Origin: Planctomycetota bacterium
GTDB taxonomy: Bacteria; Planctomycetota; UBA1135; UBA2386
Length of the DNA: 64,000 nt
Reading direction: 5' to 3'
Assembly: GCA_046290465.1 (NCBI GenBank)
Contig: JBKAGP010000001.1
Coordinates: 3,392,001-3,456,000 of the forward strand
The notes beneath the pieces were generated by a model. It worked only from the letters and a program-made list of their open reading frames with translations. It searched no databases and was not told the DNA's origin. The position numbers and the translations under genes are program-made. The stretch's first letter is position 1; every line of letters begins with the position of its first letter. Positions 15,291 through 39,069 of this stretch are shown here, one piece after another.

Positions 15291-15859
15291 GTGGCGGAGC
15301 ATGCATCGCCCCGCCAGCATCGACACCCGGCCCGCCACAGCAACGTCGGCGACGACGGCACGATCGAGTTCTCCGGGACGTTTGCCGGCGCCGGCAGCGT
15401 GCCGCTGACGCTCGGCACCACCTCGGTCCCGATCCGCGTGCGCCTCACCGGCCAGCACGCAGCGACGCAGGGCAACCACGTCGCTTCGGACAGCATCCGG
15501 CTGTCGGTGACGCCACAGAACTTCCTCGCGATCCAGCCGGCGGCCTACGGTTGCGAGACGGCCAGCGCGTCGCCCTGCCGGCGTTCCCGCAGAGCGGCGT
15601 GCTGTTCGGCGTCGGCGTGGCGTCGGGCCCCGCGGTCGCGGTCTACGGCCTCGGTGTGCAGCCGACGCTGCTGCCCAACAGCGGTGCGCTGCAGCCGTGC
15701 CTGCTGGTGCCGAGCCCCGACCTGGTGGTGCTGATCCCGCCGAACGGCCACCTGCTCGGTCTGCCGGCCGCGGTGCGCCCGATCACGGTCTACGTGCAGG
15801 GTGTGGTGCTGCTGCCGACCGGGCTGGGCACCAGCAACGGCTTCGTCGTGCAGGGATAG
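15291..15859 (+). pseudogene. frameshifted, N-terminally incomplete secreted-protein fragment
   Basis: Beta-rich coding-like frame up to ...PAAYGC (~15555), continuing in another frame to CLLVPSPDLVVL...TSNGFVVQG-stop at 15859. Confidence 0.55.
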
Positions 15860-15883
15860 GACGGCCGTCGACGGCCGCCCGCG

Positions 15884-16777
15884 CTACGGCGTCGCCGCAG
15901 CCAGCAGCCAGACCGAGATCGAACGGCGGTCGTCGTGTGGATGCACGCCGACCAGACCGACGAAGCCGCCGCAGGTGCGGTAGGGCGGCGTCGACGGCAC
16001 GACGACCATCGCGCAGCGCAGGCTGAGCTGGTCGTTGATCAGCAGGTCGACCGGGAACGAGTAGGCGTCGAGGCCCGCGGGCCCGGTCGCCGGCCGGCAC
16101 TGGTCCAACACCGCCCGCTTCTTGAGGTGCACCCCGCCGACGAGTTCCCAGACCGGCGGCACCGCTGCGACGCTCTGCACCAGCGCGAGCAGTTCGTCCG
16201 ACTCCTGCACGACGCCGAGGATGCTCGCCATCGCGAAGCGCGCCTTGGCGCTCGGGGACGACGAGTAGCCGACGAACGAGGCGAGCATGCCGCGCTTCTC
16301 GGGCTCGGCCGGCGGCTCGGCCCCCTCGTGCTCGAGCCGGCAGCCCTCGAACGCACCGTGCAGCAGCGACGGCGACGCGCGCACCGACTCCGAGCCGATG
16401 CGCCGGCCATCGGCGGCGAAGGTCACCAGCTCGAGCGACACGGACGCAGCGCGTTCCGTCGACTCGTCCACGACCGCGCGCACCAGCAGGAACCGGTCCT
16501 CGACCTCGTCGCCGCGCCGGGTCCGGACCCCGAACAACGCACGGTCGCCGGCCCGCATGTGTTCGCGGTCGCCGGCGGCGGGGAAGCCCTGCAGGATCCC
16601 GTCGGCGACCGGCCACTCGGCAGCCAGGGCCGCCAGGTCGACCACCTCGGGCGTCGCGGCCGCCGGCGCCGTGCCGGCGCACCCCGCCAGGATCGCGAGG
16701 CCCAGGACCGCGACGCAGCGCTTCGCGCGCGTCCATACGTAGGAATCCCGCGCGCCGTTCCCTTCTACACACTGCAT
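15884..16777 (-). CDS. hypothetical lipoprotein
   Basis: Hydrophobic stretch ending ILAGC; start uncertain. Confidence 0.7.
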   Translation of the reverse strand: MQCVEGNGARDSYVWTRAKRCVAVLGLAILAGCAGTAPAAATPEVVDLAALAAEWPVADGILQGFPAAGDREHMRAGDRALFGVRTRRGDEVEDRFLLVRAVVDESTERAASVSLELVTFAADGRRIGSESVRASPSLLHGAFEGCRLEHEGAEPPAEPEKRGMLASFVGYSSSPSAKARFAMASILGVVQESDELLALVQSVAAVPPVWELVGGVHLKKRAVLDQCRPATGPAGLDAYSFPVDLLINDQLSLRCAMVVVPSTPPYRTCGGFVGLVGVHPHDDRRSISVWLLAAATP

Positions 16778-16829
16778 ACCGACACCCTACATCGGACCTG
16801 ATACATGCACCAGCGCGGCCGCGACACGG

Positions 16830-18257
16830 CTACTTGCCGACGCGATCGTTGCCGACACGATCCTTGCCGACAAGGTCTTTGCCGGCCGCGACGCTCGCCG
16901 CGATGCGTGCCAGGATGTCCGCGACCGGCGGCCAGACGCCGACCTCCGGATGCGCGATCACCAGCGACGCGCACAGCGACGCCGCCTTCGTGACGTGCAG
17001 GCCGTCGATGCGCGCCAGCCGCTGCAGCATGCCGCCGACGCCGCCCTCGACGAAGCTGTAGGTCAGCACGTGCGTGCCGACCACGACGCCATCGCGATCG
17101 ACGACGACGACCAGTTCGAGCGAACCGCTCGTGCGCCACGCCGCCGCCGCGAGGTAGGCATCGAACGTGCGCCCCTGCCCGTCGATCAGCGCGAGCGCTG
17201 GCATGCCCGGCTGCGCGGCCCCGCCGGTCGTCGCGATCGAGACCTCGCCGCCGAGGACCTTGCGCGCCGCGCCGAGCACCAGGGTCTGCATCGGCACGAT
17301 CCCGTCGAGCGACCGCGACAAGCGCTGGAAGGCGACGCTGCCGGTCTGCACGGCGATGCGTCGGTCGTCGCCGACCTCGAGATAGTGCGGCAGGCGCAGG
17401 ACCCCAAGCCGCCTGGCGTCCCCGGGCTCGCACAGGCCATAGCACGGCAAACGCTCGAGGCCGCGCGCATCGAGGGCCTCGCGGCACCGCGCCAGCGTCT
17501 CGCGACTGGTCAGCACCACGAGCGCGCCGCCGTCGCGGTGGCGAGCGTCGTCGATGCGCCCCCAGTCGACCATCGAACGCACGCAGTGCTCGCAGTCCGG
17601 CGACATGACGATCGCGGCGCTGCCCGCGCTTAACACGTCGGCCAGCGCACGGCGTCGCCCGTCGACGGCCTCGACCTCGATGGCCGGGATCGGCTGCCCG
17701 GGTCGCAACTCGGAGGAGCGCGCAACCACCATCTGTTCGCCGTCCGGCTCGCCGTGGGCGAGCTTCTCGGCGACCAGCAGGGCTGCCAGCGTGGCGATGC
17801 AGACACCACACAGGTAGCGCCAGCGGAACGCGCCGATGCCGGCCCAGACGACCGCGACGGCAAGGCCGGCGAGCCGCAGCAGCATGGTCCAGAGGTCGTG
17901 CGTGTCGACCATCATCGACACCGGATCGCCGCAACCGCAGTCGTCGAGGAACGCACCGTCGCGCGCGCTGAGGCTGACGGTCCCGGCGAACGCGAGCAGC
18001 AGACCGAGCAGACCGTGAGCGGCGACCGCCCGCGTCCAGCGCAGGCACAGCAGGATGGCGAGCGCGATCTCGAGCGCGCCGAGCCCGAGCATCACCCGGC
18101 CGTACGTCTCGAGGCCCAGCAGCGGTTCGAACAACTGCGGCATCGTCACCTGGTCGTCGAAGAACTTGCTGACGCCCGAGACCACGAAGCTGCCCGCGGC
18201 CACCACGGCGGCGACCAGCCGCGACCAACGGATCCGGCGCGTGCCCGGCTCGTTCAT
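16830..18257 (-). CDS. MauE/DoxX membrane domain - thioredoxin-like (CEHC) fusion, copy 2
   Basis: SGVSKF, LEIALA, DCGCG in TM region; PGQPIP..AVDG, SPDCEHC, LGVLRLP; ATGA overlap with upstream gene. Confidence 0.8.
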   Translation of the reverse strand: MNEPGTRRIRWSRLVAAVVAAGSFVVSGVSKFFDDQVTMPQLFEPLLGLETYGRVMLGLGALEIALAILLCLRWTRAVAAHGLLGLLLAFAGTVSLSARDGAFLDDCGCGDPVSMMVDTHDLWTMLLRLAGLAVAVVWAGIGAFRWRYLCGVCIATLAALLVAEKLAHGEPDGEQMVVARSSELRPGQPIPAIEVEAVDGRRRALADVLSAGSAAIVMSPDCEHCVRSMVDWGRIDDARHRDGGALVVLTSRETLARCREALDARGLERLPCYGLCEPGDARRLGVLRLPHYLEVGDDRRIAVQTGSVAFQRLSRSLDGIVPMQTLVLGAARKVLGGEVSIATTGGAAQPGMPALALIDGQGRTFDAYLAAAAWRTSGSLELVVVVDRDGVVVGTHVLTYSFVEGGVGGMLQRLARIDGLHVTKAASLCASLVIAHPEVGVWPPVADILARIAASVAAGKDLVGKDRVGNDRVGK

Positions 18258-18790
18258 GCCGGGGCTCCCGCCGGCTGCGCCGGCTCCGCCGCGCACCGCC
18301 CGTCGACGCGCCGCGCCCACAAGAACGCCGCGGTGAACGTGAACGCCTGCACGAACGGCCAGATCCAGTCGTGCAGCAGCACGAAGGTGTTGATCGAGCC
18401 GTGGCCGTAGGCGACGACCGTTCCGATGCGGGCCATGTTGGCGACCGTCCACGCGGCCGCCAGCACCAGCAGCAGCACCGACCGGAACGTCCACGAGCCG
18501 CGGATCGAGACCGACAGCGCGACCAGGTACGGGATCGCCAGCAGGCCGGCGCACATCGGCTCGACCAGAAAGCGCATGCGCGAGCCCTGCACGGCGATGG
18601 TCACGTCGTGAACGTCGGCCGCCGCGCCGAACAGCCGCGCGAACCACGTGCTGGCCTGCGCGAAGGCGCGGCAGATCGCGTCGACGACGCCGACCTCGGC
18701 CAGCAGCAGCATCGTGACGAAGGCTGCGGCCAGCGACACGACCACGCGGACGGCGAAGGCGCGGCGCTGCTTCGGACTGCGAACGGGCAT
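18254..18790 (-). CDS. exosortase/archaeosortase family protein (short, XrtH-like)
   Basis: Catalytic-triad contexts EPMCAG (Cys), ANMARI (Arg), FVLLHDWIW (His) in a 178-aa multi-TM protein. Confidence 0.82.
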   Translation of the reverse strand: MPVRSPKQRRAFAVRVVVSLAAAFVTMLLLAEVGVVDAICRAFAQASTWFARLFGAAADVHDVTIAVQGSRMRFLVEPMCAGLLAIPYLVALSVSIRGSWTFRSVLLLVLAAAWTVANMARIGTVVAYGHGSINTFVLLHDWIWPFVQAFTFTAAFLWARRVDGRCAAEPAQPAGAPA

Positions 18791-18794
18791 GGCG

Positions 18795-18858
18795 GGCGTC
18801 GTTGTGGAGGGGCGTCGTTGTGGAGGAGCGTCGTCTAGAAGGGGCGTCGTCGTGAGCA
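18795..18858. repeat. 4 x 16-bp tandem repeat
   Basis: ggcgtcgttgtggagg x2, then agcgtcgtctagaagg and ggcgtcgtcgtgagca. Confidence 0.8.
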
Positions 18859-18900
18859 GGCTTCGCAGCCAGGAGGCTGGGGACTACCGGAGGTCCACCG

Positions 18901-21111
18901 CTACAGCGAGGTCCGCGTGCGCGCCGGTCCAGCGACGCGAACCTCACCGGTCCGCCCCGCCTCGCCGCCGCGCAGGATCGTGATGCGGTAGCTCCCCGGC
19001 GACAGGCCGTCGACCGCCACCGCCTGCGTCGCGAGCGTGCGCAGGTCGTCGACCTGCACCTCGGCGACCTTGACCGCCCGCGGCAGGCCCACGCCCTCGA
19101 CCTCGAGCGCTTCGACACGGACCGTCCCGGCGCCGTCGAAGCGCGCGTCGACCGGCTCGGCGAGGCCGACCTCGACGCCGGCCAGCGGCCACGCGATCAG
19201 GTTGCCGCGCAGCGGCGACAGCTGGCTGCGCACCACCGCGACCGCCCCGTCCGCCGCCTCGAGCCGCACCACGCCGTCGCCCGCGGCCGGCACCGCGAGC
19301 GCGACGCGCCCGTGGTCGTCGGTGGTCGCGTGCGACACGCGTTCGCTGCGCACGTCGAGGTAGGAGACCCGGCAGCCGCGCAGCGGCGTGCCCTGCCGTT
19401 CGACCGTGACCTGCGCCCGGTCGTGCGGCATGGCCAACGACATCGACAGGCTCGCACCGGGCGCCAGTTCGCGGTGCACGGGCTCGGACTTGGGGTTGGT
19501 GAGGACCACGTAGTGTCCCGCGACCAGCCCGCCGAAGCGGAGCGGCCCGCGCACCGGCAGCTCGGCGACGACGACGCTGACGAGCTTCTTCTCTCCGAAC
19601 ACGCGCTTGAGCAGCACGATCGGCAGCCGCGTCGCCGGCTGATCGCGCAGCAGCCGTTCGCGCGTCGAAGACGGATAGCTCAGCACGATCTCGCCGAGCG
19701 GCGGCAGCTGCAGTTCGACGAACGCGGCGGCGCCGTCGTCGGCAAGCGTGTACCGTGCCAGGTTGGTGACGGACGCGGTGCCGTCGTGCTTCGGCCGCGG
19801 CGTCGGGCGCACGTCGAACGCGTAGTCCCCCAGCGGCAGCTGCTCGAACGAGAACCGCCCGTTCGCGTCGGTCTGCGCCTCGGCCAGCGGCGGGTTGCGC
19901 CCCATGCGCGGATGCGGCTCCGGCGGCGGCCGGCGCTGGTCGAGCGGCCACGCCTCGACGGCCACCCCGACCGCAGGCGTGCGGTCGGCGCGCAGCACGC
20001 GTCCCTGCAGCGCCCGGCACGGCACGCGCTGCAGCACGATCTCGACGTCGCGCTGGCCGCGCTGCACGCCGTCGACGGTCGCCTCGACGAATCCGGTCTT
20101 GCGCGCCGTGATCCGGAACGCGCTGCCGCGGGCGGCGATCGACCAGGTCCCGTCCGGGCCGCTCGTGCACGACGAACGGCCGGTCCCGAGGAACCCGGAC
20201 GCCCCCTGCACCGCGGCACCCGGAACGGCCACGCCGGCCTCGGTCACGACGCGGCCGCGGATGCTGCCGGCATCGCGCATCGGCACCTCCAGCTCGACGT
20301 CCCCGTCGGCTGCCGGCACCACCTGCAGCTGCGGCTCGTAGCCGGCACACTCGCACAGCAGCACCAACGGCACACCGGCCGCGACCGGCGCCGCGAGCTG
20401 GCCGCGCTCCGCCTCGCGTTCGAGCACGTAGAGCGCATCGCCGTCGCCGGTCTCGGCCCCGGCCGCCGCCAGCAACCGCATGGCCGCCGGCACCGGCGCG
20501 CCGCTGGCGGCGTCGATCGCGCGCGCAGCCAGCCGCCGCGGCGCACGCAGCGGGATCACCAGGTCGCGCTGCAGTCCTGCACGTTGGCCGACGCACTGCC
20601 AGCGACTCTGCACCTGCTGCTGCTCGGGATCGAACACCGCCACGGCCAGCCCACCGGCGCCCGGCGGCAGCGCGCACCAGCCGGAGTCGTCGGTCACGCC
20701 GAGCAGTTCGAAGTCGCCTTGCTTGTGGCTCGTGCTCCAGCTCGCCGGCAGCGTGTTGACCCGCACCAGCTTGCCCTCGCGAACCGCGAACAGGCGGCAC
20801 GACCAGGACTCGGGCATCCAGACGACCCTGGCCCCGGCCACGTCCTGGCCGTCGCGCTGCACGCGCACGCCGATCGCCTCGCCGCCGTCGGCACCGCGCG
20901 CCAGCTGCCGCTCGCTCGCGTCCGGCACCGGCGACGCCGCCGCGTTGGCGACGTCGGCCGACGGCTTGGCGACGAGATCGGGGTCGGCCACCGGCTCCGG
21001 ACCGTCGACGCCACGCCACCAGTCGCCGGTCGCGAGCACCGCGATCAGGGCAGCGACCAGCGCAACGGGCGCGACGACGACGAACCAACCACGAGACGGC
21101 GATCTGCTCAT
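18901..21111 (-). CDS. membrane-anchored carboxypeptidase regulatory-like (beta-sandwich) repeat protein
   Basis: N-terminal TM; repeats GRVV..G..V.GA.V, TDANGRFSF..LP.G.Y; ATGA overlap with upstream gene. Confidence 0.82.
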   Translation of the reverse strand: MSRSPSRGWFVVVAPVALVAALIAVLATGDWWRGVDGPEPVADPDLVAKPSADVANAAASPVPDASERQLARGADGGEAIGVRVQRDGQDVAGARVVWMPESWSCRLFAVREGKLVRVNTLPASWSTSHKQGDFELLGVTDDSGWCALPPGAGGLAVAVFDPEQQQVQSRWQCVGQRAGLQRDLVIPLRAPRRLAARAIDAASGAPVPAAMRLLAAAGAETGDGDALYVLEREAERGQLAAPVAAGVPLVLLCECAGYEPQLQVVPAADGDVELEVPMRDAGSIRGRVVTEAGVAVPGAAVQGASGFLGTGRSSCTSGPDGTWSIAARGSAFRITARKTGFVEATVDGVQRGQRDVEIVLQRVPCRALQGRVLRADRTPAVGVAVEAWPLDQRRPPPEPHPRMGRNPPLAEAQTDANGRFSFEQLPLGDYAFDVRPTPRPKHDGTASVTNLARYTLADDGAAAFVELQLPPLGEIVLSYPSSTRERLLRDQPATRLPIVLLKRVFGEKKLVSVVVAELPVRGPLRFGGLVAGHYVVLTNPKSEPVHRELAPGASLSMSLAMPHDRAQVTVERQGTPLRGCRVSYLDVRSERVSHATTDDHGRVALAVPAAGDGVVRLEAADGAVAVVRSQLSPLRGNLIAWPLAGVEVGLAEPVDARFDGAGTVRVEALEVEGVGLPRAVKVAEVQVDDLRTLATQAVAVDGLSPGSYRITILRGGEAGRTGEVRVAGPARTRTSL

Positions 21112-22559
21112 TGGACGGATCGGGCGAGCGCCCGTTCGAGTGCACTGCTGACGGGGATCCAGACGTAGCCGAGCCGGGCGTCCCGATGCAGGTGGGCGCC
21201 GTAGGCGGCGGCCTCTTCGAGCGTCATGCCCGGCAGCGCCTCGAGGTGCGGCGCCGGATCGTCCGCGCCGGTGAAGCCGAGCTGCCAGTCGATGGCGCGC
21301 GCAGCGCGGATGCGGCCGTCGCGACCGAGCAGCAGCGCCAGTTCGACGAACTCGGGGCGATACGGATTGCCACCGACCACCAGCAGCGTCTGCGGCTCGG
21401 CGCCCGCGACCTCGACCGACAGGCACCCATCCGAACGGCGCAGCTCGCCGAGCTGCATCGACGCGTCGGCGCCGTCGAGCTGTCGCAGCACCAGCTCGGC
21501 AGCGGCGCGTTCGCCGACCAGGCGACGCATCGCGGCGAACGACGACGTGTGCCGGAACGTCGAGGTCTTGGCATCGACGCGCATGCCGCGGCCGACGCGG
21601 ATCATGCACGGGACCATCGTGACCCCCAGCGCCTCCAGGTCACGCCGTTCGACCAGCCGGCAGACGACGGCGTCCGGCACCGCACTCTGCATCGTGGCCG
21701 GAACGGCAACCGGCTCGGCCGAGCTGGCGTCGACGTCGACCATGACCAGCCGGCCGCCGCGCTGCGCCGCGTCCTGCTGCAGGTGCTGCCAGTAAGCAAC
21801 CGCCTCGTGACAGTGCGGGCAGTCCCGCGAGTAGAAGATCAGACAGTCCTCGACCCGGAGCAGCCGGTAGGCGCTGGTGACGTCGCCGCCGACGGCACGC
21901 AGCCGCACGTCGGGAATGCGCCATCCGACCCGGTCGAGGCGCGCATCGCGCAGCACGCCGTTGAGCGCGGCCTTGGTGCTGCGGCGATCGATCGACTCCG
22001 ACAGCGCCAGCACGAACCCAGCCGGCGCGATCGCCGCCAGCATCCAGACCAGCCGCCGACCGCGACGCGCACAGCTCGCGAGCATCGCGACCAGCACCGT
22101 GTTGCGCAGCACCATCAGGGGCGCGCCGTAGCCGAACGTCTCGGCCGGCAGCGTGACCCCGCAGCCGCAGTTGGCGAGGAACGAGTGGTCGCCCGCGCTG
22201 GCAGCGGCCAGCAGCGAGAACGACGTCAGCAGCACGCCGCCGACGAGCGCGGCGATGCGGCGACCCCGGGTGAACACCAGGGCCACCGCCACCAGGCACT
22301 CGAGCACCGCAACGGCCAGAACCATGCGCTGGAAGGCCGTCGCCGAAAGTGCTCCGAGCACCACCGGCTGCGCCGGCGCGCCAAAGACGAGCTTCTGCAC
22401 GCCGGCGACGCCGAGCACGATCCCCGGTATGGCCCAACCGGCCACGCCGAGGATGCGTCTCTTGAGCCCCGGCCCTGCAGCTGCAGGACCGGCCTCGGAC
22501 CGCGAGCCACCGGCGTTCGCCGTCAGGCAATCGGGCGAAGCGGCAACGACGTCGGTCAT
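21108..22559 (-). CDS. MauE/DoxX membrane domain - thioredoxin-like (CPHC) fusion, copy 1
   Basis: AGVQKL, LECLVA, NCGCG, LRNTVL; YSRDCPHC, LGVTMVP. Confidence 0.82.
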   Translation of the reverse strand: MTDVVAASPDCLTANAGGSRSEAGPAAAGPGLKRRILGVAGWAIPGIVLGVAGVQKLVFGAPAQPVVLGALSATAFQRMVLAVAVLECLVAVALVFTRGRRIAALVGGVLLTSFSLLAAASAGDHSFLANCGCGVTLPAETFGYGAPLMVLRNTVLVAMLASCARRGRRLVWMLAAIAPAGFVLALSESIDRRSTKAALNGVLRDARLDRVGWRIPDVRLRAVGGDVTSAYRLLRVEDCLIFYSRDCPHCHEAVAYWQHLQQDAAQRGGRLVMVDVDASSAEPVAVPATMQSAVPDAVVCRLVERRDLEALGVTMVPCMIRVGRGMRVDAKTSTFRHTSSFAAMRRLVGERAAAELVLRQLDGADASMQLGELRRSDGCLSVEVAGAEPQTLLVVGGNPYRPEFVELALLLGRDGRIRAARAIDWQLGFTGADDPAPHLEALPGMTLEEAAAYGAHLHRDARLGYVWIPVSSALERALARSVQ

Positions 22560-22574
22560 CGGGTGTTGCCGGGA

Positions 22575-23000
22575 TCAGGCGAGGCGGAACCGGCGGCCGA
22601 ACGCGGCCAGGCCGGCGAGGATGCCGAGCGCCCACGGCAGCGGGCTGCGCGACGGATCGTCCGGCACCTTGCAGTAGCAGAGCGCGTCGGAGCCGACCTC
22701 TTCGCCTTCGTCGTTGGTGACGACGATCTTGCCCTCGTAGCAGCCTTCGCCTTCTTCGAGTTCGTCGACCTCACCGGCGCGGCACTTGTCGAGCGTCGGG
22801 CAGGCGGGTTGGTACTCGAAGCAGTCGTCGCCGTACTTGGTGTCGCAGGGGCCGGACCAGACCTCGTCGCCGTTGGCGTCGTAGATCGTGCAGGTGTAGT
22901 CGGCAGGATCGGCGTTGGGCGGCAGCGGGCTCGGGCCCTGGGCGGAGAGGGCGCTCGCGAACAGCGTCGAGAGCAGCAGCGTAGAGAGAACACGGATCAT
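22575..23000 (-). CDS. small Cys-rich acidic secreted protein with C-terminal sorting signal (putative exosortase target)
   Basis: Signal peptide (ALSA/Q), 8 Cys, tail VPDDPSRSPLPW-ALGILAGLAAFG-RRFRLA; GGAG RBS. Confidence 0.85.
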   Translation of the reverse strand: MIRVLSTLLLSTLFASALSAQGPSPLPPNADPADYTCTIYDANGDEVWSGPCDTKYGDDCFEYQPACPTLDKCRAGEVDELEEGEGCYEGKIVVTNDEGEEVGSDALCYCKVPDDPSRSPLPWALGILAGLAAFGRRFRLA

Positions 23001-23388
23001 GTTGGACTCCGATTCAAAGCAGAAGAAAGCTCTGATCCCGCGGCGCGAGATCTTCCCGCTGGCACCCTAGACCCGTTGGGTCAGCCGTCAACAATACGTG
23101 TTGGTCGCCGCGCCCGCCAGGGTATCGATACCCGTGCAGGGATGACGCAAGGCGTTTGGCTGCGACCGGTTCGCAAGGATCCGACGCGCCGTGCGAGGGG
23201 CAGCGCGCCTCGAATGGTCGACCATGTCGACCATTTTCTCGCACCGCCCCAGGGACCTTGTGCCGGGGAGCCTCGCTCCTACGCTGACGCTCCGTCGACG
23301 AAGGTTCGGCCAACGCGCCGTGCGCGACCCGCGGTCACCACGACCCGCGAGACGCCGCAGGAAGAAGCCCACCCCAGGATCCCACCCG

Positions 23389-24003
23389 ATGAACGAACCC
23401 CGCCTCGGAGGCCTCTGCCTGACCCTCGGCTCGACCGTGACGTTCGCCGCGATCGCCAGCCTCGAGTGCATCGGCCGACTCGCCCCCACGGCATCCCACG
23501 AGACCCTGGCCGAGTCCGCCGGCGACTTCTGGCACCTGATGCAGCACATCTGGGGCTGGGAAGCCATCGGCCACGCCGTGATCGCCGCTGGCAGCCTGCT
23601 GCTGGCCAAGGCCACGCGCGGCCTGGTGAGCGTCGCGTGGATGGCGATGACGATCTACCTGGTGATGACCGTGATCGCGCTGACCATGACCCTCGGGATC
23701 GAGCTCGCGCCGACGCCGGAGGCGTGGACGATCCCCTCGTTCGAAGGCGCGAGCCGGGCGTTGCAGGTCGGCCAGTGGGTCGGCCTCGGCCTGATGGTTG
23801 CGCTGTTCTCGTCGGCGGCATTCGGGCGATCGGGGGTGGTCGGCCGGAGTGCCGGGATGGTGGCGCTCGGGTCCCTGGCGGCGGCCGGGCTCGGGGCGGC
23901 GGTGGGCGTGTTGCCGACGAGGGTGGTGAGCATGGTGCTGCTGGTGCAGCCGATCGTGCTGGGGTTGGGGCACTGGCGGATGCTGGATCGGGACGCGATC
24001 TGA
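23389..24003 (+). CDS. hypothetical membrane protein
   Basis: Multiple hydrophobic helices. Confidence 0.65.
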   Translation: MNEPRLGGLCLTLGSTVTFAAIASLECIGRLAPTASHETLAESAGDFWHLMQHIWGWEAIGHAVIAAGSLLLAKATRGLVSVAWMAMTIYLVMTVIALTMTLGIELAPTPEAWTIPSFEGASRALQVGQWVGLGLMVALFSSAAFGRSGVVGRSAGMVALGSLAAAGLGAAVGVLPTRVVSMVLLVQPIVLGLGHWRMLDRDAI

Positions 24004-24215
24004 GCGCTGCTTCGCCGACCTGCGGGTCGCGGCGGATCCGGTCTGCGAGACCGCACACCTGCTGCTGCCCCCATAGATATTGTCCGACCTGACGAGCACC
24101 GGGGCCTCCTCCTGTCCGGGTAGAACACCACAGGAGTTCTCTTCTACGTATCCTCCCCGCTACGACGGGATCAGCTACGATCCGTCGCGCCCCACCTGCC
24201 GAACGGAGAGCCCCG

Positions 24216-25427
24216 ATGACTCGACCGAAGTGCCTCGCACCGCTGCTGCTGCTCTTGCTGCTCGCCTGCACCGCATCGACGCAGGAGAAGGTCACGGTAC
24301 GCGCAGCGCTGTTCCCCTATCTGCCGCCGGACCGCCACAACGAAGCACTCCATGAACGCATCACGTCGGAGTTCCACAAGGCGAACCCGGACCTGAAGCT
24401 CGAGCTACGCCGCTTCGACAGCTGGGAGAACTTCTACGACCCGCACTTCCTGACGAAACTGCTCCGCGGCGCGGATCGCTACGACATCATCGAGGTGGAC
24501 ACGGTCCTGCTCGGCACGCTGCTCGACCTCGAGCTGGTGGCCCCGTGGCCCGCACCTCTCAGTGACGCGCAGCCCATCGCCCGTGACGCCGCACGCGTCG
24601 ATGGCATCACCTATGGAATGCCGCACTGGTTGTGCGGGCACTTCGTGATGAGCACGCACCAGAAGGTCGCAGCGGCCGAGAGCGCAAGCCAACTCGTGGC
24701 GGCGCTCGAAGCCGCAGCACCTGGCACCCGCAACCTCGCCGCCAACCTCCGCGGAAGCTGGAACGGCCCCGCTCTCTACCTGGATGCGTGGGCAGACTCG
24801 CGCAGCTCCAACGACCTGCTCGGCGCAATCCGGCTCCCGCTCGACACCGACGTCGCCGGGCTACTCGCCCAGGTCGCCGCCCAAGGCGCCTTCCAGGGCG
24901 TGAACCCCTGCATCAACGGCGACTACGAGGACAACGACCAGGCCGCGATCGACTTCGGCACCGGCAAGGCCGACGCACTGCTCGGCTACTCCGAACGGAT
25001 GCACCACGCGGTTGCCGCGGGCATCGACCCCACGAAGGTCTTCGTGGGATCCGCTCCGCTCGGCGCCGGCTCCGATCCAATCTGGTTCGTGGACATGTTC
25101 GTCCTGCCGGGCGACTACCCGGATGGCGTGACGCCGGAGGAGATCAAGGCCCGCCGCGAGGGGGCGCGGAGGTTCGGCGAGTTCATGAACCGGGCCGACG
25201 TGTTCGCCTGGATCCACCAGAGCGCGGATCTCGGAGCGAAGGCGGCGCCGAGGTACCTGCTTCCGGCCACCCGATCCGCCTACGAGCATCCGGCGTTGGC
25301 GCGCGACCCGATCATCGGACAGGTGCGACCGCTGGTGGGCCGCGGCACGTTCTTTCCGCGGTTCCGGCTTCCAGGAGCCAGAAAGCGGATGGAAGCTGCA
25401 GTCAACAGGGCGATCGGGGCCAAGTAG
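24216..25427 (+). CDS. thiaminase I (thiamine pyridinylase)-like lipoprotein
   Basis: Lipobox LLAC; LFPYLP, YGMPHWLCG (nucleophile Cys position), GYSERM (base Glu position), WFVD, PRYLLPA. Confidence 0.75.
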   Translation: MTRPKCLAPLLLLLLLACTASTQEKVTVRAALFPYLPPDRHNEALHERITSEFHKANPDLKLELRRFDSWENFYDPHFLTKLLRGADRYDIIEVDTVLLGTLLDLELVAPWPAPLSDAQPIARDAARVDGITYGMPHWLCGHFVMSTHQKVAAAESASQLVAALEAAAPGTRNLAANLRGSWNGPALYLDAWADSRSSNDLLGAIRLPLDTDVAGLLAQVAAQGAFQGVNPCINGDYEDNDQAAIDFGTGKADALLGYSERMHHAVAAGIDPTKVFVGSAPLGAGSDPIWFVDMFVLPGDYPDGVTPEEIKARREGARRFGEFMNRADVFAWIHQSADLGAKAAPRYLLPATRSAYEHPALARDPIIGQVRPLVGRGTFFPRFRLPGARKRMEAAVNRAIGAK

Positions 25428-25586
25428 CGACGGCGGGCATCGCCCCGCACCACGAACCCGACCGCCCGCATGGGCCGGTGGATACCGATCAGGCCGCCCG
25501 TGAACCGGCGCTGCCAACCGGACGGCTCCAAGCAACCAACATCGCAAGCAACCTGAAGCTGCTCTGGCCAGGGCCCTGACGGTTGC

Positions 25587-25847
25587 TCAGCCCTGCGGGA
25601 ACCGCGGCCCTGGCTCGTGCGCATACTCGATGTCGTCCGCAAGGCTCAGCGAGTCGAGCAGCTCGGACACCGGGCCGGTGGCGTCGAGTTCGACCTCGTA
25701 GAGGGTCGCAAGCTCCTCCTCGGACTCGCCGGGAAACAGCTGCCTTGCACGGCAAGGCTGTCCGCCGAGAAGGGACTCGATCCGGGCCGTCTTCACCTGC
25801 ACGGGCGAGCTCGCGCTGCGGAACTTGACGATGAGCTTGTGTCGCAC
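25587..25847 (-). CDS. small protein resembling a stand-alone subtilase propeptide domain
   Basis: LIVKFR...RQLFP...LYEVEL...L...DIEYAHEP pattern; GTG start estimated. Confidence 0.5.
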   Translation of the reverse strand: MRHKLIVKFRSASSPVQVKTARIESLLGGQPCRARQLFPGESEEELATLYEVELDATGPVSELLDSLSLADDIEYAHEPGPRFPQG

Positions 25848-26258
25848 GGTCGTGGTTTGCGAGTGCGCGCACCAGTCTACCGCATTCGCTGAGGACGGCG
25901 CAGAGCACGGCGCTGCGTGCGTCATGACCCGCCCCACGACCAGGCGACGGAAGGAGCGCTGCCAAGAGCTCGGCAGAACGTTCGTCGCCACCACCGAGCC
26001 GCTCGATCCACACCGTGACGGTGGTTTCGACGGAGGGATCGGGTCGGTGGGGATGGCTTGCGAGCGTGGCGTTTGGCTGGGCGCGGTCGGGGGCACTCGT
26101 CGTGCGGACACCGGGTAGGATCGCGCGGCGGTTCAAGCCTTTGTTCGGACTTGAGTTACGGCTGTCACCGCAGGACGCATCGCCCGCAGCTCCCATCCCA
26201 TGGCGCCGTCTGAATCTATCCGAGGCCTCCGCGTAGGCTCGACGTCTGGGACACGCTC

Positions 26259-26861
26259 ATGCACGACCTCATCGGCGACCTCTACTTCGCTGGCGCTCTC
26301 GCCGCCCTCTACGGGTTCTTCACCCTCATCGGGGGGACAACTCCTAAGGCGCAACTGACCACGCTGCTTCTCCTCGGGTTCGCCTTCCTCGCTGATGCCT
26401 ACTCGTGGCTGGTCGTTCCTGTTCGCGAGACAAGCTCTTCGCTGCTCTGGAAGCTCGACTCTCTCGGCGTCATCGCCTCCTTCATCGCCGCTGCACTCGC
26501 TGCCAACACAACTTGGTCCAAGGCCTTTGGCGCTCTGGTCCTCTCGCTTGAGACCTACCTCATCACCGCGTTCGTCTACTGGTTCTACCTGCCGACTCAA
26601 GACCCGAAGCTCTTCGCATCCGTCATGGAGACCTGGGGCGCGACCTCGCAGGATGACATGGACCTGTACCGACTCCTCGCACTTCTGCTCTTCTCCGTTT
26701 CACCGGTGGTCCTCGCCCTTGGCTACTTCGCAACCAAGGGGTGGCTGCCGTGGGTTCGCACTCGCTGGCCACACCTCTGGACCAAGCGCTGGCACGTGCT
26801 CGCTGTTCTGATTGGCGCTTACTACGTCGCCTACAACGTCACACCGTGGCTCCTTCTCTGA
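26259..26861 (+). CDS. hypothetical polytopic membrane protein
   Basis: About 6 hydrophobic segments; island-type codon usage. Confidence 0.75.
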   Translation: MHDLIGDLYFAGALAALYGFFTLIGGTTPKAQLTTLLLLGFAFLADAYSWLVVPVRETSSSLLWKLDSLGVIASFIAAALAANTTWSKAFGALVLSLETYLITAFVYWFYLPTQDPKLFASVMETWGATSQDDMDLYRLLALLLFSVSPVVLALGYFATKGWLPWVRTRWPHLWTKRWHVLAVLIGAYYVAYNVTPWLLL

Positions 26862-27002
26862 CCCGATGGGGGACCACGGCTTCGGGTCCTCGGTGACGGA
26901 GCCATGCCGCGTCTTCTTGCGTTCCTCCTCGAGTTCGGGCGTCGGTTGCTCACCAGCTCGGGGTGAGTGAGCAACACGAACCCTCAACCGGAGGCAACGA
27001 AG

Positions 27003-27254
27003 ATGACAACAGCACGTCCCATCCACCAAGTTCGCATCGGCCGCATCGTGGCCGCCATCTGGGCGAACGAGACTCCCCTCGGCACGCGCCACAACGTGAC
27101 GCTCAGCAGGCTCTACAAGAGCGGGCCCACCGACGACTGGAAGCGCACCGAGAGCTTCGGCCGCGACGACCTTCCCACCGTCGAAAAGGTCTGCGACCTG
27201 GCTTTCCGCTGGATTCACGACCAGCGCAAGGCGGACGGTGACGGGGCCGCCTGA
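27003..27254 (+). CDS. small conserved planctomycete mobile-element protein, possible ssDNA-binding
   Basis: PIHQVRIGRIVAAIWANET..HNVTLSRLYK..WK.TESFGRDDLP; GGAGG RBS. Confidence 0.75.
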   Translation: MTTARPIHQVRIGRIVAAIWANETPLGTRHNVTLSRLYKSGPTDDWKRTESFGRDDLPTVEKVCDLAFRWIHDQRKADGDGAA

Positions 27255-27316
27255 GCGGCCGTCTTGCCTGCTACCTCACCTCTTCGTGCAGGTAGCTCCT
27301 GAGAGCTAACGAGTGG

Positions 27317-27874
27317 TCACGAAGGAAACGTGAAGCGGTCCGCTCCAAGACCTGCCGCGTTCTTCTGACAGTAGGCAACCCCCTTGTTCGACAAGAACAC
27401 CTGGCCGTTGCCCGGGTCGTGCTCCACGAGACCAGCTTCGAAAAGCTTGGCAACGGCTCGCGTGTAGTCCCTCCAAACCGACGAACGCGGGTCGAGTCCG
27501 AACGTCCACCGACCTTCGGTTGGCTTCTTGAAGTGCTGCTGCTGGTAGTGCCACAGCGTGTTCAGCACGCGGCGTCCCATGTCTCCGAGTTCAACATTCT
27601 CGGGCACGAGCTCTGCGTCGGGCGCAGCTTCCGGCGCACTAGTCGTTCCCTCCCCGAACTCGTACTTGCCCCAGGGTGAGTCCCAGCTTCGAAGACGGCC
27701 AAGAAGAGCGACTACGTGCTTTCGGAACCACCACACGATGACCAACACGACCAAGGGCCATGCCAGAGCTTCGACCAGACGGAGAAAGAACTCCGCACCA
27801 TCGACGGCATCCGTTGCGGTGGCTACCGCTTCGGTCTTCGACGCAACAACGTCCGGCTGGGCCTTCTCCTGCAT
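27317..27874 (-). CDS. hypothetical protein with one TM helix
   Basis: LAWPLVVLVIVWWFR helix then a soluble domain with possible wHTH. Confidence 0.7.
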   Translation of the reverse strand: MQEKAQPDVVASKTEAVATATDAVDGAEFFLRLVEALAWPLVVLVIVWWFRKHVVALLGRLRSWDSPWGKYEFGEGTTSAPEAAPDAELVPENVELGDMGRRVLNTLWHYQQQHFKKPTEGRWTFGLDPRSSVWRDYTRAVAKLFEAGLVEHDPGNGQVFLSNKGVAYCQKNAAGLGADRFTFPS

Positions 27875-28018
27875 GAAGGCACACTCTCTCGTGGCAAGGG
27901 GAGGTGAGGCAACGGCGACGCGGAGAAACAGAGAGAAGCAGCCGCGTGGTAGGCGCAGACAAAGCCCGCGCTCGTTGAGTAACCCGGTCCCCCCCACTCG
28001 CCGTTCCCGGGCTTGACC

Positions 28019-28046
28019 ACGCTTGATAAAATGGGTTATCGTCAGT
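28019..28046. other. dif-like 11-6-11 recombination site
   Basis: ACGCTTGATAA-AATGGG-TTATCGTCAGT with GATAA/TTATC dyad just upstream of a tyrosine recombinase. Confidence 0.55.
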
Positions 28047-28121
28047 AGTCATGAGCCAGATTCGGGTGGGGGACTCGGCCAACTCCTGTCTCCTGAACAG
28101 CTTGGAGCGGCACTCCTGACT

Positions 28122-29324
28122 ATGAACCGAAGCGTCGATGCGACTCGTGACCCCGGGCTCCCGGACCCCTCCTCGGGTCCGGCGCCGGTCGGCGAGCTCG
28201 TCTCGGCTGGCGATGGGATGCCCGCGGTGCTCCTCGGGCATGCGACGCCTCAGGTCGCGGCCAAGGTTGAGAGCTTCTGCAGGTCCGTCGCCTCGATGCT
28301 CGAGGCTTGGATTCAGCGCAGCCAGAACCCGAACACCCAGCGCACGTACCGCCGTGCCGTGATGGACTTCATCGAGTTCTTGGGCATCGACTGGCCTGAG
28401 AACTCGCACGAGCTGCTCTCCGCATCGGTCCCGGACGTCCGGGCCTGGCGGGACACGCTCGCGGCTGCAGGCAAGGCTCCCGCGACCCTGAACGCCAGGC
28501 TCTCGGCACTCTCCGGGTTCTACCGCTTCATGCGGGAGGTCTCGGTCACCGAGATGAAGCTACCCATCCAGGTCCCGAACCCGGCGCACGCCCAGTTCAT
28601 CGGCCGCGAGAGCCCCGAGCCGGTCTCCCCAACGTCCGCCCTCACCCTCTCGAAGGCGAAGCGACTCCTGGCGCTTCCTTCACGCGACCACATCCTGCGA
28701 GCCGACGAGTTCCTCGCCAAGCGCTTCAAGAACAACCCCGCAGCGCTCGAGCACGAACTCGACGTCTTGGTTGCTCGCGACCGGGCTGTCTTGGCGGTCT
28801 TTCTCTACACCGGGTCGCGCATCGGCTCGGTCTGCGCGCTCCACGTCGCGGACTTCCACGACGACGAGGACGACCCCACCATCAGCTTCCGCGAGAAGGG
28901 ACGGTCGCGTTCGAAGCGCCGCATCGGCGTCAACTTCGTGTGTGCCGAGGCGCTTCGCGACTACCTCGAGCGTTCAGGTCTCACGAAAGGGCCTCTCTTC
29001 CGGGCGCGAACGAACCCCCGCAGTGCGAAGCTGAGCTCGCGCCAGGTGAGCCAAGCCACGATGTACGGCTTGCTTCTCTCCTACCTCGAGCGCGTGCCGG
29101 GGGCGATGGCTGAGGAAGAGCTCGAAGATGGGTCGAGCCGGAAGCGGTGTCGCTACTCCCCCCACTCGCTACGCGCGACCACGGCGACGCTACTCGACGA
29201 GGCCGGGGTGCCCATCAAGCGCATCCAGGAGTTGCTCGGGCACAAGGACATCCGCGTCACCCAGGCCTACATTAAGCTACTGCGCGACACCAAGAAGAGT
29301 GCGTCGCACGACGTGCCACTCTGA
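28122..29324 (+). CDS. tyrosine recombinase (XerC/D-like, with SAM-like core-binding domain)
   Basis: NTQRTY, APATLNARLSALSGFY, TGSR, EKG, HSLR, LGH, TQAY. Confidence 0.92.
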   Translation: MNRSVDATRDPGLPDPSSGPAPVGELVSAGDGMPAVLLGHATPQVAAKVESFCRSVASMLEAWIQRSQNPNTQRTYRRAVMDFIEFLGIDWPENSHELLSASVPDVRAWRDTLAAAGKAPATLNARLSALSGFYRFMREVSVTEMKLPIQVPNPAHAQFIGRESPEPVSPTSALTLSKAKRLLALPSRDHILRADEFLAKRFKNNPAALEHELDVLVARDRAVLAVFLYTGSRIGSVCALHVADFHDDEDDPTISFREKGRSRSKRRIGVNFVCAEALRDYLERSGLTKGPLFRARTNPRSAKLSSRQVSQATMYGLLLSYLERVPGAMAEEELEDGSSRKRCRYSPHSLRATTATLLDEAGVPIKRIQELLGHKDIRVTQAYIKLLRDTKKSASHDVPL

Positions 29325-29484
29325 ACGCACGCCCATGACGTAGAATCTCCGAAGAAGTTGAGCCGGGCATGGCGACGACGCGCTGCGCGTCTCTGCGGCG
29401 AGTCTCGTGGACCGCGACCACTCCGGCTACGACGTCACGCTCGAGAACGTCGCGCTCGTCCTATTCTGACACACATCCGCATCC

Positions 29485-30234
29485 GTGCCCCTGCCACTAT
29501 CTGTCCCACTCTGCTACGGAAGCTCCTACCCTGACCTCAGCGACATCAAGTTCGGTGGGTCGTGCTTCGAGTTCGTCGGCCACAGCGACGGACGCGGATG
29601 GTTTGCAACTTGCCGACACGTTGTCGACGATTGCCCCGAAGGTCACTCGCCATTCATCTGCGACGCACTGGAGACGACTAACAGAGACCCGAAGTTCTAC
29701 CCCATCCTCGAGGTCCGGCCTCACCCCAAAGTCGACTTCGCCGCGCTGCACATCGACTTCTCGGACTCGGACCACCGTTGGAATCCAGAGTGGCGCTGGT
29801 TCGGCCCCGCTCCAGACGACGGACTCCTCGACGACGTCTCAGCGGCGGGATGGGTCATCGAGACTTGCGGTAGCGGAACACACTTGCTGAGCCGCAGGTT
29901 GAAGGGCTACGTCACGAGGACCATCGCAACCCCCGACTATATCCCTGGAGCGGGCGACGCTTGCTTGGAGGTCTCTTTTCCTTCGGTCGTTGGGTTCAGT
30001 GGAGCCGCCCTTGTGGCACCAGACCACAACTCCTCGACACCACCGCCAGAGAGAGTCGTCGGCATGATGTTTCAGAACCATCGGTCCAGAGTCGACGAAT
30101 CACTCGAACACGAGTTCACCGACGGGAGAGGCATGACCGAGCGAGAGCGCATCGCGAGCATTGTCAACTTCGGACTCGCCCATCCGGTGTCCGTAATCCT
30201 CTCCTGCCTCAATGACCTTGGGCTCGGCCGATGA
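29485..30234 (+). CDS. trypsin-like serine protease, no signal peptide
   Basis: ATCRHVV (His), VDFAAL (Asp), GFSGAAL (Ser). Confidence 0.72.
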   Translation: MPLPLSVPLCYGSSYPDLSDIKFGGSCFEFVGHSDGRGWFATCRHVVDDCPEGHSPFICDALETTNRDPKFYPILEVRPHPKVDFAALHIDFSDSDHRWNPEWRWFGPAPDDGLLDDVSAAGWVIETCGSGTHLLSRRLKGYVTRTIATPDYIPGAGDACLEVSFPSVVGFSGAALVAPDHNSSTPPPERVVGMMFQNHRSRVDESLEHEFTDGRGMTERERIASIVNFGLAHPVSVILSCLNDLGLGR

Positions 30235-30346
30235 CCGTGTCGGCACAGGAGCATGACCTCGTCTCACGAATAAGAGGAGCGAGCGTCGGTGGTCGAAGAG
30301 TGTCGACGGTGGCACGAGTGCCATCCCCCACCTAAGGCAGGCCACT

Positions 30347-30973
30347 ATGAATATGGACTTTGAACCCGACACTTACACTGACCCGATGTTTTGCCGGCAC
30401 TGTCAGGCCGAGACCCCTATGTATCGGGCCGCCAGTTTCGTGCAGACGGTCGAGGACGTCAGTCCCATCACCGTTACCGAACGCTGGGTCGCGTTGAGCT
30501 GTCCGAAGTGCTCGGGCATTTCTCTTCAAAGGAGGGTCACCGACAACGTTCCTTGTGAGGACATGGATGTACCGGTTTGCACGGTTGTATACCCAGCAGA
30601 GGTTCGACCCCCGGTAGGCCTACCCTCAAGTATCCAAGATGCTTTCGTGGAAGCCGCAAGAGCGGCTAGCTTTAGCACCTCTCTCTCCGGCGTTGGCTTT
30701 CGCCGAGTCCTCGAGATGGTGTGCCGCGACAAGAAGGTCCAGACCCCGAAGCTCGCAACGGGCATCAACCAGCTTGTAGAGTCCGAGGACCTCAAGTCGC
30801 GATTAGCTCAGCTTGCTCATGAAGTGAGAGCGCTAGGCAACCGCGGTGCGCACGAGTGGGAGAGGCTGTCGAAGGCAGAGGTCCGCAGCGCTGAGGCCCT
30901 GTGCCGCGCCGTTCTCGAGGTCGTCTACAGCGCTCCGCATCTCATCACGCAGGTAACAAGGCACGATACGTGA
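30347..30973 (+). CDS. DUF4145 (HEPN-like) protein with N-terminal Zn ribbon
   Basis: CRHC/CPKC; LP..IQDAF.EA; RRVLE; RALGNRGAH. Confidence 0.85.
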   Translation: MNMDFEPDTYTDPMFCRHCQAETPMYRAASFVQTVEDVSPITVTERWVALSCPKCSGISLQRRVTDNVPCEDMDVPVCTVVYPAEVRPPVGLPSSIQDAFVEAARAASFSTSLSGVGFRRVLEMVCRDKKVQTPKLATGINQLVESEDLKSRLAQLAHEVRALGNRGAHEWERLSKAEVRSAEALCRAVLEVVYSAPHLITQVTRHDT

Positions 30974-30978
30974 GCGCG

Positions 30979-32697: not shown

Positions 32698-33181
32698 CCG
32701 GTCTTCAAGTGCGGTCTTCTTCTCTCACGGCCTGAAGGACTCTCACCTCCAGGTCTGTCTCGGTCGTCCCGCATCCACGGGACCCGTGAGGTTATGGGAT
32801 AGAATGAACGGATTGGACGTTGGTGTGTTGGTAATGCTCGGGTGGAGGACGACGTGTCCCCCGGAACCATCCCCGAGAGCGCGTAGACCTCCTTGTTCTG
32901 TAGAACCAACCGAAACAACACGACCAAACGGTTTACTCGTTCAAGCCTCCCTCGCTCTGAGCAAGCGCCTCTCGACGCACTCAGCGCTACGAGCAAGCAG
33001 CAATGGCAGGTGGTGAGCCTGCCCCCTTAGCCTGGAAGCGTTCCAGGTTTACCGGGCGCTACTTCGCCAATTCGAGGCGACGCCAGACCGTGTTTCAGGC
33101 TCTGACGACCAAGTCTCTGCTATCCACAGAGACTCAGGCCGAGATTAGCACGCTGTTTCATCTTGAGCAAAACGGCGGCTG

Positions 33182-33919
33182 TTAGCCGAGCATACTGAGT
33201 AGCTTCGAGACAAGCCCACCGAGCACCGCGGAAAGCACAAGGTGCCACCACTGAAGGCGTGTCCCCGCCTCGCTCTGGCGCGTGCTCTGGCGTCTTCCTC
33301 GGAACGCGTCTCTGGCTGCGGAGTCGCGAACCTCGCGCACTTCCTTGCGAAGTTCAACGACCTGGCCGGTCTGCTCGACAACGACATCAGTGAGCTTCTC
33401 GAAGCGCTCATCTTGGTCTTCGTCTCGCGTTCGAACCGGAGGCATGACGAGCGCTGACGGCAGCGGTCTGAAGTAGGAAGGCTCTGCTCGCAGCGCATCG
33501 GTCGCCTTCCGAAGTCGGTCAAGGCCCGAAAGCTCGGGAAACACTGCTCGCGCGGAAGCAAGAGCCTCCATCCTCGCCTTCGCCTCCTGCGCCTGCTCGA
33601 GAATGCCCGCGCACATCGCAGTTGGTCCATCCGAAAGAGCATTCGCGACGCTGAGGGCAGGGCTGCTCGCGAGCGCACTTGCGGCTCGAGAGACCTCCGC
33701 CAACCGAAGGGGCTCGAGAGCACGCTGAGCGGCTGCGACCGAATCCAAGGTGCTCGACAACGCCCTCGACGGCCTGAGCAACCGCTCCATGGTCTGCCGC
33801 TCCCTCTCGATTCGCCGCAGAGTTTCAGACTGAACTCGCCTTCTTTCCTCCCGCTGCTCTTCTGTCAGCGAGCGCTCGTACTCTTCGCACCGCTTCGCGA
33901 TGTGGCTGAAGTCGACCAT
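33182..33919 (-). CDS. hypothetical coiled-coil protein with C-terminal TM helix
   Basis: Charged helical body; tail WWHLVLSAVLGGLVSKLL; 6-bp gap after the yjzC-like gene. Confidence 0.7.
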   Translation of the reverse strand: MVDFSHIAKRCEEYERSLTEEQREERRRVQSETLRRIERERQTMERLLRPSRALSSTLDSVAAAQRALEPLRLAEVSRAASALASSPALSVANALSDGPTAMCAGILEQAQEAKARMEALASARAVFPELSGLDRLRKATDALRAEPSYFRPLPSALVMPPVRTRDEDQDERFEKLTDVVVEQTGQVVELRKEVREVRDSAARDAFRGRRQSTRQSEAGTRLQWWHLVLSAVLGGLVSKLLSMLG

Positions 33920-33925
33920 CGCGCT

Positions 33926-34108: not shown

Positions 34109-34121
34109 CTCGAATTCCTTC

Positions 34122-36356: not shown

Positions 36357-36359
36357 GGG

Positions 36360-37979: not shown

Positions 37980-39069
<1,090 letters not shown>

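Follow-up and report, generated by a model that had tools for sequence, protein, structure and literature searches.

Exosortases and archaeosortases are cysteine proteases that remove C-terminal tails composed of a motif, a transmembrane segment and a basic cluster; dedicated exosortase-target pairs are already known, and few enzyme-substrate pairs have been defined. The making of disulfides by MauE proteins has been shown only recently. Here we analyzed a 64,000-nt window from the genome of a Planctomycetota bacterium (positions 3,392,001 to 3,456,000 of contig JBKAGP010000001.1, assembly GCA_046290465.1), in which five co-oriented open reading frames (ORFs), A to E, occupy the minus strand at positions 16830-23000 and pack a small client, a probable protease and probable oxidases into 6 kb. 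We lean towards reading this operon as a fold-then-sort unit, in which two MauE-containing fusion proteins (B and E) would oxidize the cysteines of protein A, and a diverged exosortase (D) would cut its C-terminal tail and probably anchor A in the envelope.

The catalytic triad suspected in exosortases consists of Cys, Arg and His (10.1101/2023.06.07.544157; also the review table in PMC9263693). According to the available text of the report on the MauE pathway (10.64898/2026.03.05.709764), MauE relays disulfides through a CxC loop in a DsbB-like manner, with quinone as the predicted acceptor, and is predicted to bind ubiquinone through a Lys and a Glu. Two MauE proteins rescue Escherichia coli dsbB, both CxC cysteines being needed, and thioredoxin fusions make up 8.2% of MauE entries. 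The same report terms MauE a generalist, refers to earlier work in which MauE was a possible reductase, and describes Phe-Gly after the CxC as highly conserved, with no mutation test of it in the available text, which also mentions neither an exosortase nor the third domain described below. Our literature search found no work joining an exosortase with MauE, the coverage of the XrtH literature being thin.

The diverged exosortase and its candidate substrate

The genome around the window is a single contig of 6.59 Mb (94% complete), and a codon-trained gene finder picks all five ORFs. Genes B and C share an ATGA overlap at 21108-21111, as do D and E at 18254-18257; the A/B gap is 15 nt and the C/D gap 110 nt. 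Thus, the original prediction of five co-oriented minus-strand genes with two ATGA junctions was confirmed at the same limits. The overlaps couple B with C and D with E translationally and thereby support the coupling of folding with sorting. Furthermore, a contig of 11,276 nt assembled in an independent study carries all five genes co-linearly, matching 16547-26135 with 179 differences, so the gene order is not an assembly artefact.

Gene D (P0004; 18254-18790, minus strand) encodes a short, diverged exosortase of 178 aa that is polytopic, with hydrophobic segments along the protein. It exceeds the cut-off of the exosortase/archaeosortase signature TIGR04178 (26.5 bits against 23) and reaches none of the named subfamily models, scoring 24.5 against 170 for XrtX (NF046081), 19.5 against 86 for XrtH (TIGR04177) and 14.8 against 160 for XrtY (NF046083). 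D fits no named exosortase subfamily. Across 40 aligned exosortases, the positions of Cys80, Asn118 and Arg121 of D are invariant (40/40 each), and that of His140 holds His in 38/40. By its signature and the conserved Cys, Arg and His columns, D is a member of the exosortase/archaeosortase family with predicted cleavage activity, which bears out the short exosortase with Cys/Arg/His contexts proposed originally. The homologue P0008 (81% identical) carries PF09721, another, P0023, scores 34.1 on TIGR04178, and the D of a second lineage is 80% identical.

Among 5.8 billion proteins, homologues of D make up no more than 2 clusters. In the exosortase tree, D falls outside the XrtH groups, its placement being unsure; a join (91/84) with the exosortases of three loci described below (L135, L138 and L139) was unstarred, on a branch of 4.11, and was not accepted as kinship. 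Metagenome contigs queried with D alone gave 213 pattern matches, none confirmed, and no loci. The search of the genome with TIGR04178 did not recover D itself, and such surveys can therefore miss diverged members. The genome's other exosortases are two, one XrtA-like and one XrtH-like (74.4 against 86). The former has three PEP-CTERM-type tails elsewhere in the genome, and the latter lies two genes from a tailed protein of 261 aa of its own, which leaves A for D.

The XrtH-like locus (L008:9094-11201; ~5,741,100-5,743,200 of contig G000:C1) consists of the exosortase, a SEC-C-bearing membrane protein and the tailed 261-aa protein, the tail of which misses the IPTL-CTERM model. This exosortase clade with its SEC-C partner recurs in L132, L137, L228 and L230.

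Gene A (P0001; 22575-23000, minus strand) encodes a secreted acidic protein of 141 aa without a Pfam match, the likely exosortase substrate. It has a hydrophobic, signal-type N-terminus, 8 cysteines (37, 52, 60, 67, 73, 87, 108 and 110), 22 Asp/Glu against 5 Lys/Arg within residues 21-112, and a C-terminal tail that is hydrophobic and then basic, so that the composition and the sorting-type tail described for it both stand. The tail (residues 107-141; 22578-22682, minus strand) comprises Cys-Tyr-Cys, a Pro-rich spacer, a hydrophobic segment and an Arg cluster, and is a candidate new sorting signal. Homologues of A also fall in only 2 clusters among the 5.8 billion proteins, and the sole one not from near-identical strains, P0078, is identical to A at 35/35 residues of the tail and at 62/86 (72%) of residues 21-106. 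An invariant tail on a drifting body is as expected for a recognized sorting signal, and the tail of A therefore appears to fit one, the comparison being of a single pair in which recent recombination is possible. The tail lies below the cut-off of every sorting-signal model tried: IPTL-CTERM (TIGR04174/PF18203) gave no match at E up to 1, and a local profile built from 12 IPTL-type tails did not report it. An Atlas structure search with A returned nothing above TM 0.40. The most likely role of mature A would be that of a surface or matrix binding module.

Three-domain MauE proteins and the repeat protein

Genes B (P0002; 21108-22559, minus strand; 483 aa) and E (P0005; 16830-18257, minus strand; 475 aa) each encode a MauE domain, a thioredoxin domain and a putative RnfG/FMN-bind-like domain. 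B carries CGC at residues 131-133, CPHC at 247-250 and, like E, the conserved Lys and Glu of MauE; E carries Lys31, Glu63 and CGC (107-109) in MauE, CEHC (222-225) and Pro290 in thioredoxin, and its third domain at ~317-463. The original prediction had called both proteins MauE-thioredoxin fusions, rightly as to the families, and had missed the C-terminal domain of ~150 aa. On Pfam MauE (PF07291, cut-off 27), E scores 44.1, and B scores 26 as a whole protein and 32.1 in the genome search; MauE matches in the genome number 4. B and E are 25-27% identical to each other (27% over 289 columns). A search of 1.84 billion representatives with E gave 52 matches, mostly of 430-495 aa, and the locus thus exposes a three-domain MauE family of ~30 proteins with an unexplained RnfG-like domain.

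In the family alignment of 36 rows, at least five of which are truncated in the C-terminal part, the MauE CGC, Lys and Glu are each kept in 33/36 rows. The thioredoxin CxxC is present in 36/36 with an invariant Pro, CPHC being the commonest form (19/36). The retention of CGC, Lys and Glu, the residues named in the MauE report (10.64898/2026.03.05.709764), supports an oxidase role for B and E. No DsbB and no VKOR match was found in the 94%-complete one-contig genome. The oxidative-folding role that had been assigned to MauE is better founded now, MauE being reported to replace DsbB (10.64898/2026.03.05.709764).

In the structure model of E (pLDDT 86.6), the thioredoxin domain is predicted to adopt a ResA/TlpA/SdbA-type fold (Foldseek E 3e-5, Z 14.2); its profile matches are ResA, TlpA and PDI, and the fold matches include PDB 3c71, the title of which says DsbA-like. 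Residues 6-144 of the model resemble NACHO/TMEM35A (Z 11.5), and residues 317-463 align to RnfG (7zc6_G; Z 10.8, rmsd 4.5 over 140 residues). In the Atlas, the C-terminal domain of the family member P0035 aligned to FMN_bind clusters at TM 0.70, under the naming bar. None of the 36 family rows has a Pfam FMN_bind match, hhalign of the third domain with the genome's FMN_bind protein gave 0.05%, and the flavinylation motif [ST]GA[ST] occurs in the C-terminal part of 0/36 rows, at least five being truncated there. The third domain thus appears RnfG/FMN-bind-like in predicted fold, a likeness that sequence methods do not confirm. At the 3' end of gene E (16830-16890), three near-copies of a five-residue peptide unit are found that are missing from the homologue P0010.

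Gene C (P0003; 18901-21111, minus strand; 736 aa) encodes an N-terminal membrane anchor (residues 10-28) followed by CarboxypepD_reg beta-sandwich repeats. It passes the CarboxypepD_reg model in 3 stretches (60.7 against 32.3), in line with the carboxypeptidase-regulatory repeat protein described earlier. A local profile detected 68 CarboxypepD-like genes in the genome, and the presence of C therefore says little; with such genes this abundant, we obtained no evidence for C as the possible partner that it had been suggested to be.

The same genome holds a second Cys-rich module, without an exosortase, at ~5,994,100-5,998,200 (L009:4137-8241; contig G000:C1), where genes with low codon scores encode a 160-aa secreted Cys-rich protein, a MauE protein, a 332-aa protein with a hydrophobic/basic C-terminal end, and a CarboxypepD protein. 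This exosortase-free cassette of a Cys-rich secreted protein, MauE and a CarboxypepD protein is also present in L070, L076 and L079. In these three loci and in L072, MauE adjoins CarboxypepD proteins, an arrangement that recurs in this class; DUF1573 proteins occur in L070 and L076, and small proteins with 8-13 Cys in L076 and L079.

Analogous loci, proposed mechanism and alternative explanations

The clearest analogue of the design in the window is L118:7430-10252 (G149:C32), where a 127-aa 9-Cys IPTL-type target, a VKOR-thioredoxin fusion (VKOR 74.1 against 27.5; Thioredoxin_4 40.1 against 23.2), an XrtH-like gene (84.9 against 86) and a 200-aa membrane protein are encoded in one direction. 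A conserved four-gene set in L135:2036-5596, L138:270-5102 and L139:4657-8813 encodes a secreted Cys-rich protein, with a tail in L135 and L139 and none in frame in L138, a helical protein of 520-640 aa, a short exosortase and a small membrane protein of 130-150 aa without a Pfam match. Both CxxC motifs of the latter are invariant, and it is possibly an unrecognized disulfide generator. In L042, a MauE-thioredoxin fusion adjoins a 14-Cys protein scoring 20.1 against 20.5 on IPTL-CTERM; the contig ends there, and the only exosortase gene found in that genome (73% complete) is XrtA-type. Redox-type membrane neighbours occur in 4/46 short-exosortase loci, from two lineages, and in 0/12 loci with Cys-poor IPTL-type targets. 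The analogous loci suggest a recurring design rather than a rule, the numbers being small and the kin not independent.

Two further candidates were rejected. Contigs C302 (MauE-thioredoxin fusion and IPTL-like target) and C690 of G063 do not overlap and were not joined, the exosortase of C690 being of XrtA type (273 aa) and encoded within a sugar locus. The CxxC membrane neighbours flagged in L128 and L131 are the exosortases themselves and were dropped.

In the fold-then-sort reading, the Sec pathway would export A, and the tail would keep it in the inner membrane. Oxidation of A would fall to the CPHC thioredoxin domain of B, with E (CEHC) serving as a second oxidase or an isomerase, and each MauE domain would re-oxidize its own thioredoxin and pass the electrons to quinone; B and E would each be the equivalent of DsbB plus DsbA in one chain, acting on four possible disulfides in A. 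D would recognize the invariant tail, cleave it near the membrane and probably transfer A to lipid. In the weakest step, the flavin-less third domain and the membrane-anchored C would act as a periplasmic scaffold or substrate holder. The gene anatomy, family membership, catalytic-type residues and predicted folds are shown here, and the chemistry of MauE and of exosortases comes from work on homologues; we infer the pairing of D with A, the order of the steps and the role of C. The fold-then-sort unit is likely an accessory module made of portable parts and not a widely conserved system.

Several observations weigh against such a unit. The holders of the five-gene set are near-identical strains, with homologues also in one lineage at 69-81% identity. 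In that second lineage, P0023 and the E homologue P0010 are both tabulated on a contig of 117,770 nt, a point in favour of the unit; the contigs with the target homologue P0078 reach 66,682 nt at most, its linkage to P0023 and P0010 being only putative. Of the outcomes that the original prediction took as refuting it, a lack of any exosortase HMM match did not arise, and a lack of co-occurrence elsewhere largely did: homologues of the five genes are together in no other sampled genome. D itself lacks a Pfam exosortase match, sits with P0023 on a very long branch (4.11) of the exosortase tree, and was not found in 60 relatives (0/60); A was not found in 338 other genomes of the class (0/338), and the three-domain family was detected in 2/338 (E 1e-15), once in a two-domain form. 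After the CxC, Gly replaces Phe in both B (Gly-Val) and E (Gly-Asp), Phe being present in 17/36 family rows. In the neighbourhood surveys with local profiles, which covered 40 of 120 MauE places from 100 relatives and 40 of 59 XrtH-model places from 300 relatives, an exosortase was found in 0/40 MauE loci and MauE in 0/40 exosortase loci (in 36/40 of the latter, the exosortase profile picked up the exosortase gene itself); in 15 additional loci, drawn from 400 of the phylum's genomes, no MauE lay within four genes. The other three-domain loci (L054, L154, L155, L156, L158 and L194), three of them with long flanks, contained an exosortase in 0/6 cases. Among the analogues, the two-CxxC protein matches VKOR at only 5.7% by hhalign, its kinship being unproven, the loci with a redox membrane neighbour are only the 4 of 46 given above, and the Cys-rich tailed targets of L126 and L129 lack such a neighbour. 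Thus, the proposed coupling of export, oxidative folding and cleavage or anchoring gains from loci in which other redox enzymes stand in for MauE, and loses in that the full set was found in no other sampled genome and that no exosortase and MauE shared any of the loci surveyed.

The closer-alignment A5 locus searches gave 40 loci from metagenomes and 26 from genomes; just 5 of the former and 1 of the latter were full family members, the remainder was dropped as thioredoxin-only or weak, and L157 gave no gene calls. In 3/6 three-domain loci, a small untailed secreted Cys-containing gene lies directly upstream of the MauE gene (L154:515-895, L155:201-575 and L194:3915-4106, with 4, 4 and 8 Cys); these proteins are likely other clients.

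The neighbourhood data could alternatively be explained by a mosaic origin, a possible though doubtful account, in which a common cassette of Cys-rich protein, MauE and CarboxypepD protein gained a second MauE fusion along with an exosortase, and the fusions are general oxidases for many envelope proteins, neither dedicated to A nor timed with its cleavage. The exosortase-free cassettes of L009, L070, L076 and L079 and the two 0/40 counts are what such an origin would predict, and B and E are too dissimilar (25-27%) for a recent local duplication. MauE is called a generalist (10.64898/2026.03.05.709764), and, with no DsbB or VKOR found, the fusions could carry the general load. However, D and E are translationally coupled, a VKOR-DsbA fusion occupies the same slot at L118, and 14/14 same-genus genomes gave no match to the three-domain protein, which makes a housekeeping role less likely. 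It is improbable that the tail of A is no substrate of D, being instead a MYXO-CTERM-like lipidated signal cut by an Rce1-like protease, a signal cut by the XrtH-like enzyme, or a plain anchor, with D decaying or serving another target. The best model match of A is indeed MYXO-CTERM (TIGR03901, cut-off 20; 15.7 for the whole protein, 18.4 for the tail alone), its top Atlas feature matches are MYXO-CTERM proteins (0.81, a lead only), the genome has 7 Rce1-like genes, and D is very diverged. Yet the match covers only model positions 10-31, outside the Cys motif, and the same model gives similar scores to a PEP-CTERM-type tail (17.8) and to the tail of the XrtH neighbour (16.8). The myxosortase core NF040914 reaches 37.2 at best against a cut-off of 100 in the 94%-complete genome, and MYXO-CTERM matches outside Myxococcota were judged false positives in the available text of Haft 2023 (10.1101/2023.06.07.544157). 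Moreover, none of the four key residues is lost from D, whose counterpart in the second lineage is 80% identical.

Highly improbable, finally, is a reductive or flavin-relay role, in which the fusions would keep the cysteines of A reduced for a metal or move electrons between quinone and periplasm through a non-covalent flavin. The alignment of the C-terminal domain to RnfG (Z 10.8) and FMN_bind clusters (TM 0.70), the proximity of the thioredoxin domain to ResA, TlpA and CcmG, several of which are reductants, the acidic and Cys-rich character of A, and the earlier MauE-reductase report cited in 10.64898/2026.03.05.709764 point that way. They are set against the lack of [ST]GA[ST] in the C-terminal part of 36/36 rows, at least five truncated, CPHC as the commonest active site, the DsbA-like title of PDB 3c71, the complementation of dsbB by two MauE homologues (10.64898/2026.03.05.709764), and the even number of cysteines in A. 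Beyond the fold-then-sort unit as such, it is rather unlikely that the locus joins a previously undescribed three-domain oxidase and a new subfamily of exosortases, one that has a sorting signal to itself, in one membrane assembly line, with tail cleavage gated by completed disulfide folding, the flavin-fold domain having lost its flavin site and holding client or protease, and exosortase operons for small Cys-rich clients generally recruiting interchangeable disulfide generators (MauE-thioredoxin in the window, VKOR-DsbA or a two-CxxC protein in other loci).

Genomic surroundings and relation to known systems

The original prediction delimited the five genes correctly and left out a sixth co-oriented gene, F (P0006; 15884-16777, minus strand), 52 nt downstream of E. 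F encodes a lipoprotein-like protein of no family and is a possible sixth member of the operon, of unsure membership because both of its paralogues in the same genome sit in unrelated contexts. The intergenic spacer between C and D (18791-18900) consists of short imperfect repeats and varies in length between strains, with indels at 18801-18823 in runs X3, X4, X7 and X12. A promoter/terminator scan of the locus gave 0 + 0 sites, such a scan being uninformative in this GC-rich genome. Among 10 locus and flank proteins scanned, none had a Pfam match to MauA, MauB or MauG, the rest of the genome not having been searched.

Run X2 shows ~440 extra bases in another strain at window position 15343, upstream of a 102-aa ORF (15551-15859) that may be a truncated gene here. 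At 26000-42000, beginning 3 kb upstream of A, GC falls from ~0.72 to 0.59-0.64, probably marking a genomic island; the ORF at 28296-29324 is presumably integrase-like. Runs X2 and X5 no longer match beyond 26135. The contigs of runs X3 and X4, from one study, cover ~15781-23034 and not the flanks, X3 having a 29-nt loose end at 23034. A mobile block in this region is no more than a lead, as nothing follows from missing cover when depth varies, and the joints in the X3/X4 tables, with sides below 30 nt, were dismissed as noise.

Every part of the locus belongs to a known family, and the reach of the findings is limited by the rarity of the exact five-gene set. Exosortase H with IPTL-CTERM (TIGR04177, TIGR04174, PF18203), XrtX and XrtY share with it a short exosortase of ~160-180 aa with Cys/Arg/His and a tailed secreted neighbour, and some XrtH targets (L118, L129, L042) are Cys-rich, like A. 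In contrast, D scores below the XrtH, XrtX and XrtY cut-offs, the tail of A is not IPTL-like, and the gene for the ~200-aa membrane protein that we take to be an XrtH associate does not adjoin D, whose operon instead has MauE fusions and a CarboxypepD protein. From VKOR-DsbA fusions, which likewise join a membrane disulfide generator to a thioredoxin and take the same operon slot at L118, B and E differ in having the CxC of MauE instead of the CxxC of VKOR.

With the MauE pathway, as far as described in the available text of 10.64898/2026.03.05.709764, and with mauE/mauD, the locus has in common the four-helix MauE, the CGC, Lys and Glu, a thioredoxin partner and a small disulfide-rich client. 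Unlike them, it has the RnfG/FMN-bind-like third domain, two paralogues in one operon and Gly after the CxC; its client is tailed and lacks a Pfam match to MauA, and an exosortase is present. The JDVT-CTERM neighbourhoods with DUF4266, DUF3570 and TlpA (10.1101/2023.06.07.544157) also place a gene of thioredoxin type near a sorted protein, the neighbours being read there as partners of the mature product; the sorting enzyme is a glutamic myxosortase, and no MauE was seen in the available text. New in the window are an exosortase and a sorting-type tail that fit no named group, a MauE family with three domains, and the proposed link of protein sorting with disulfide generators.

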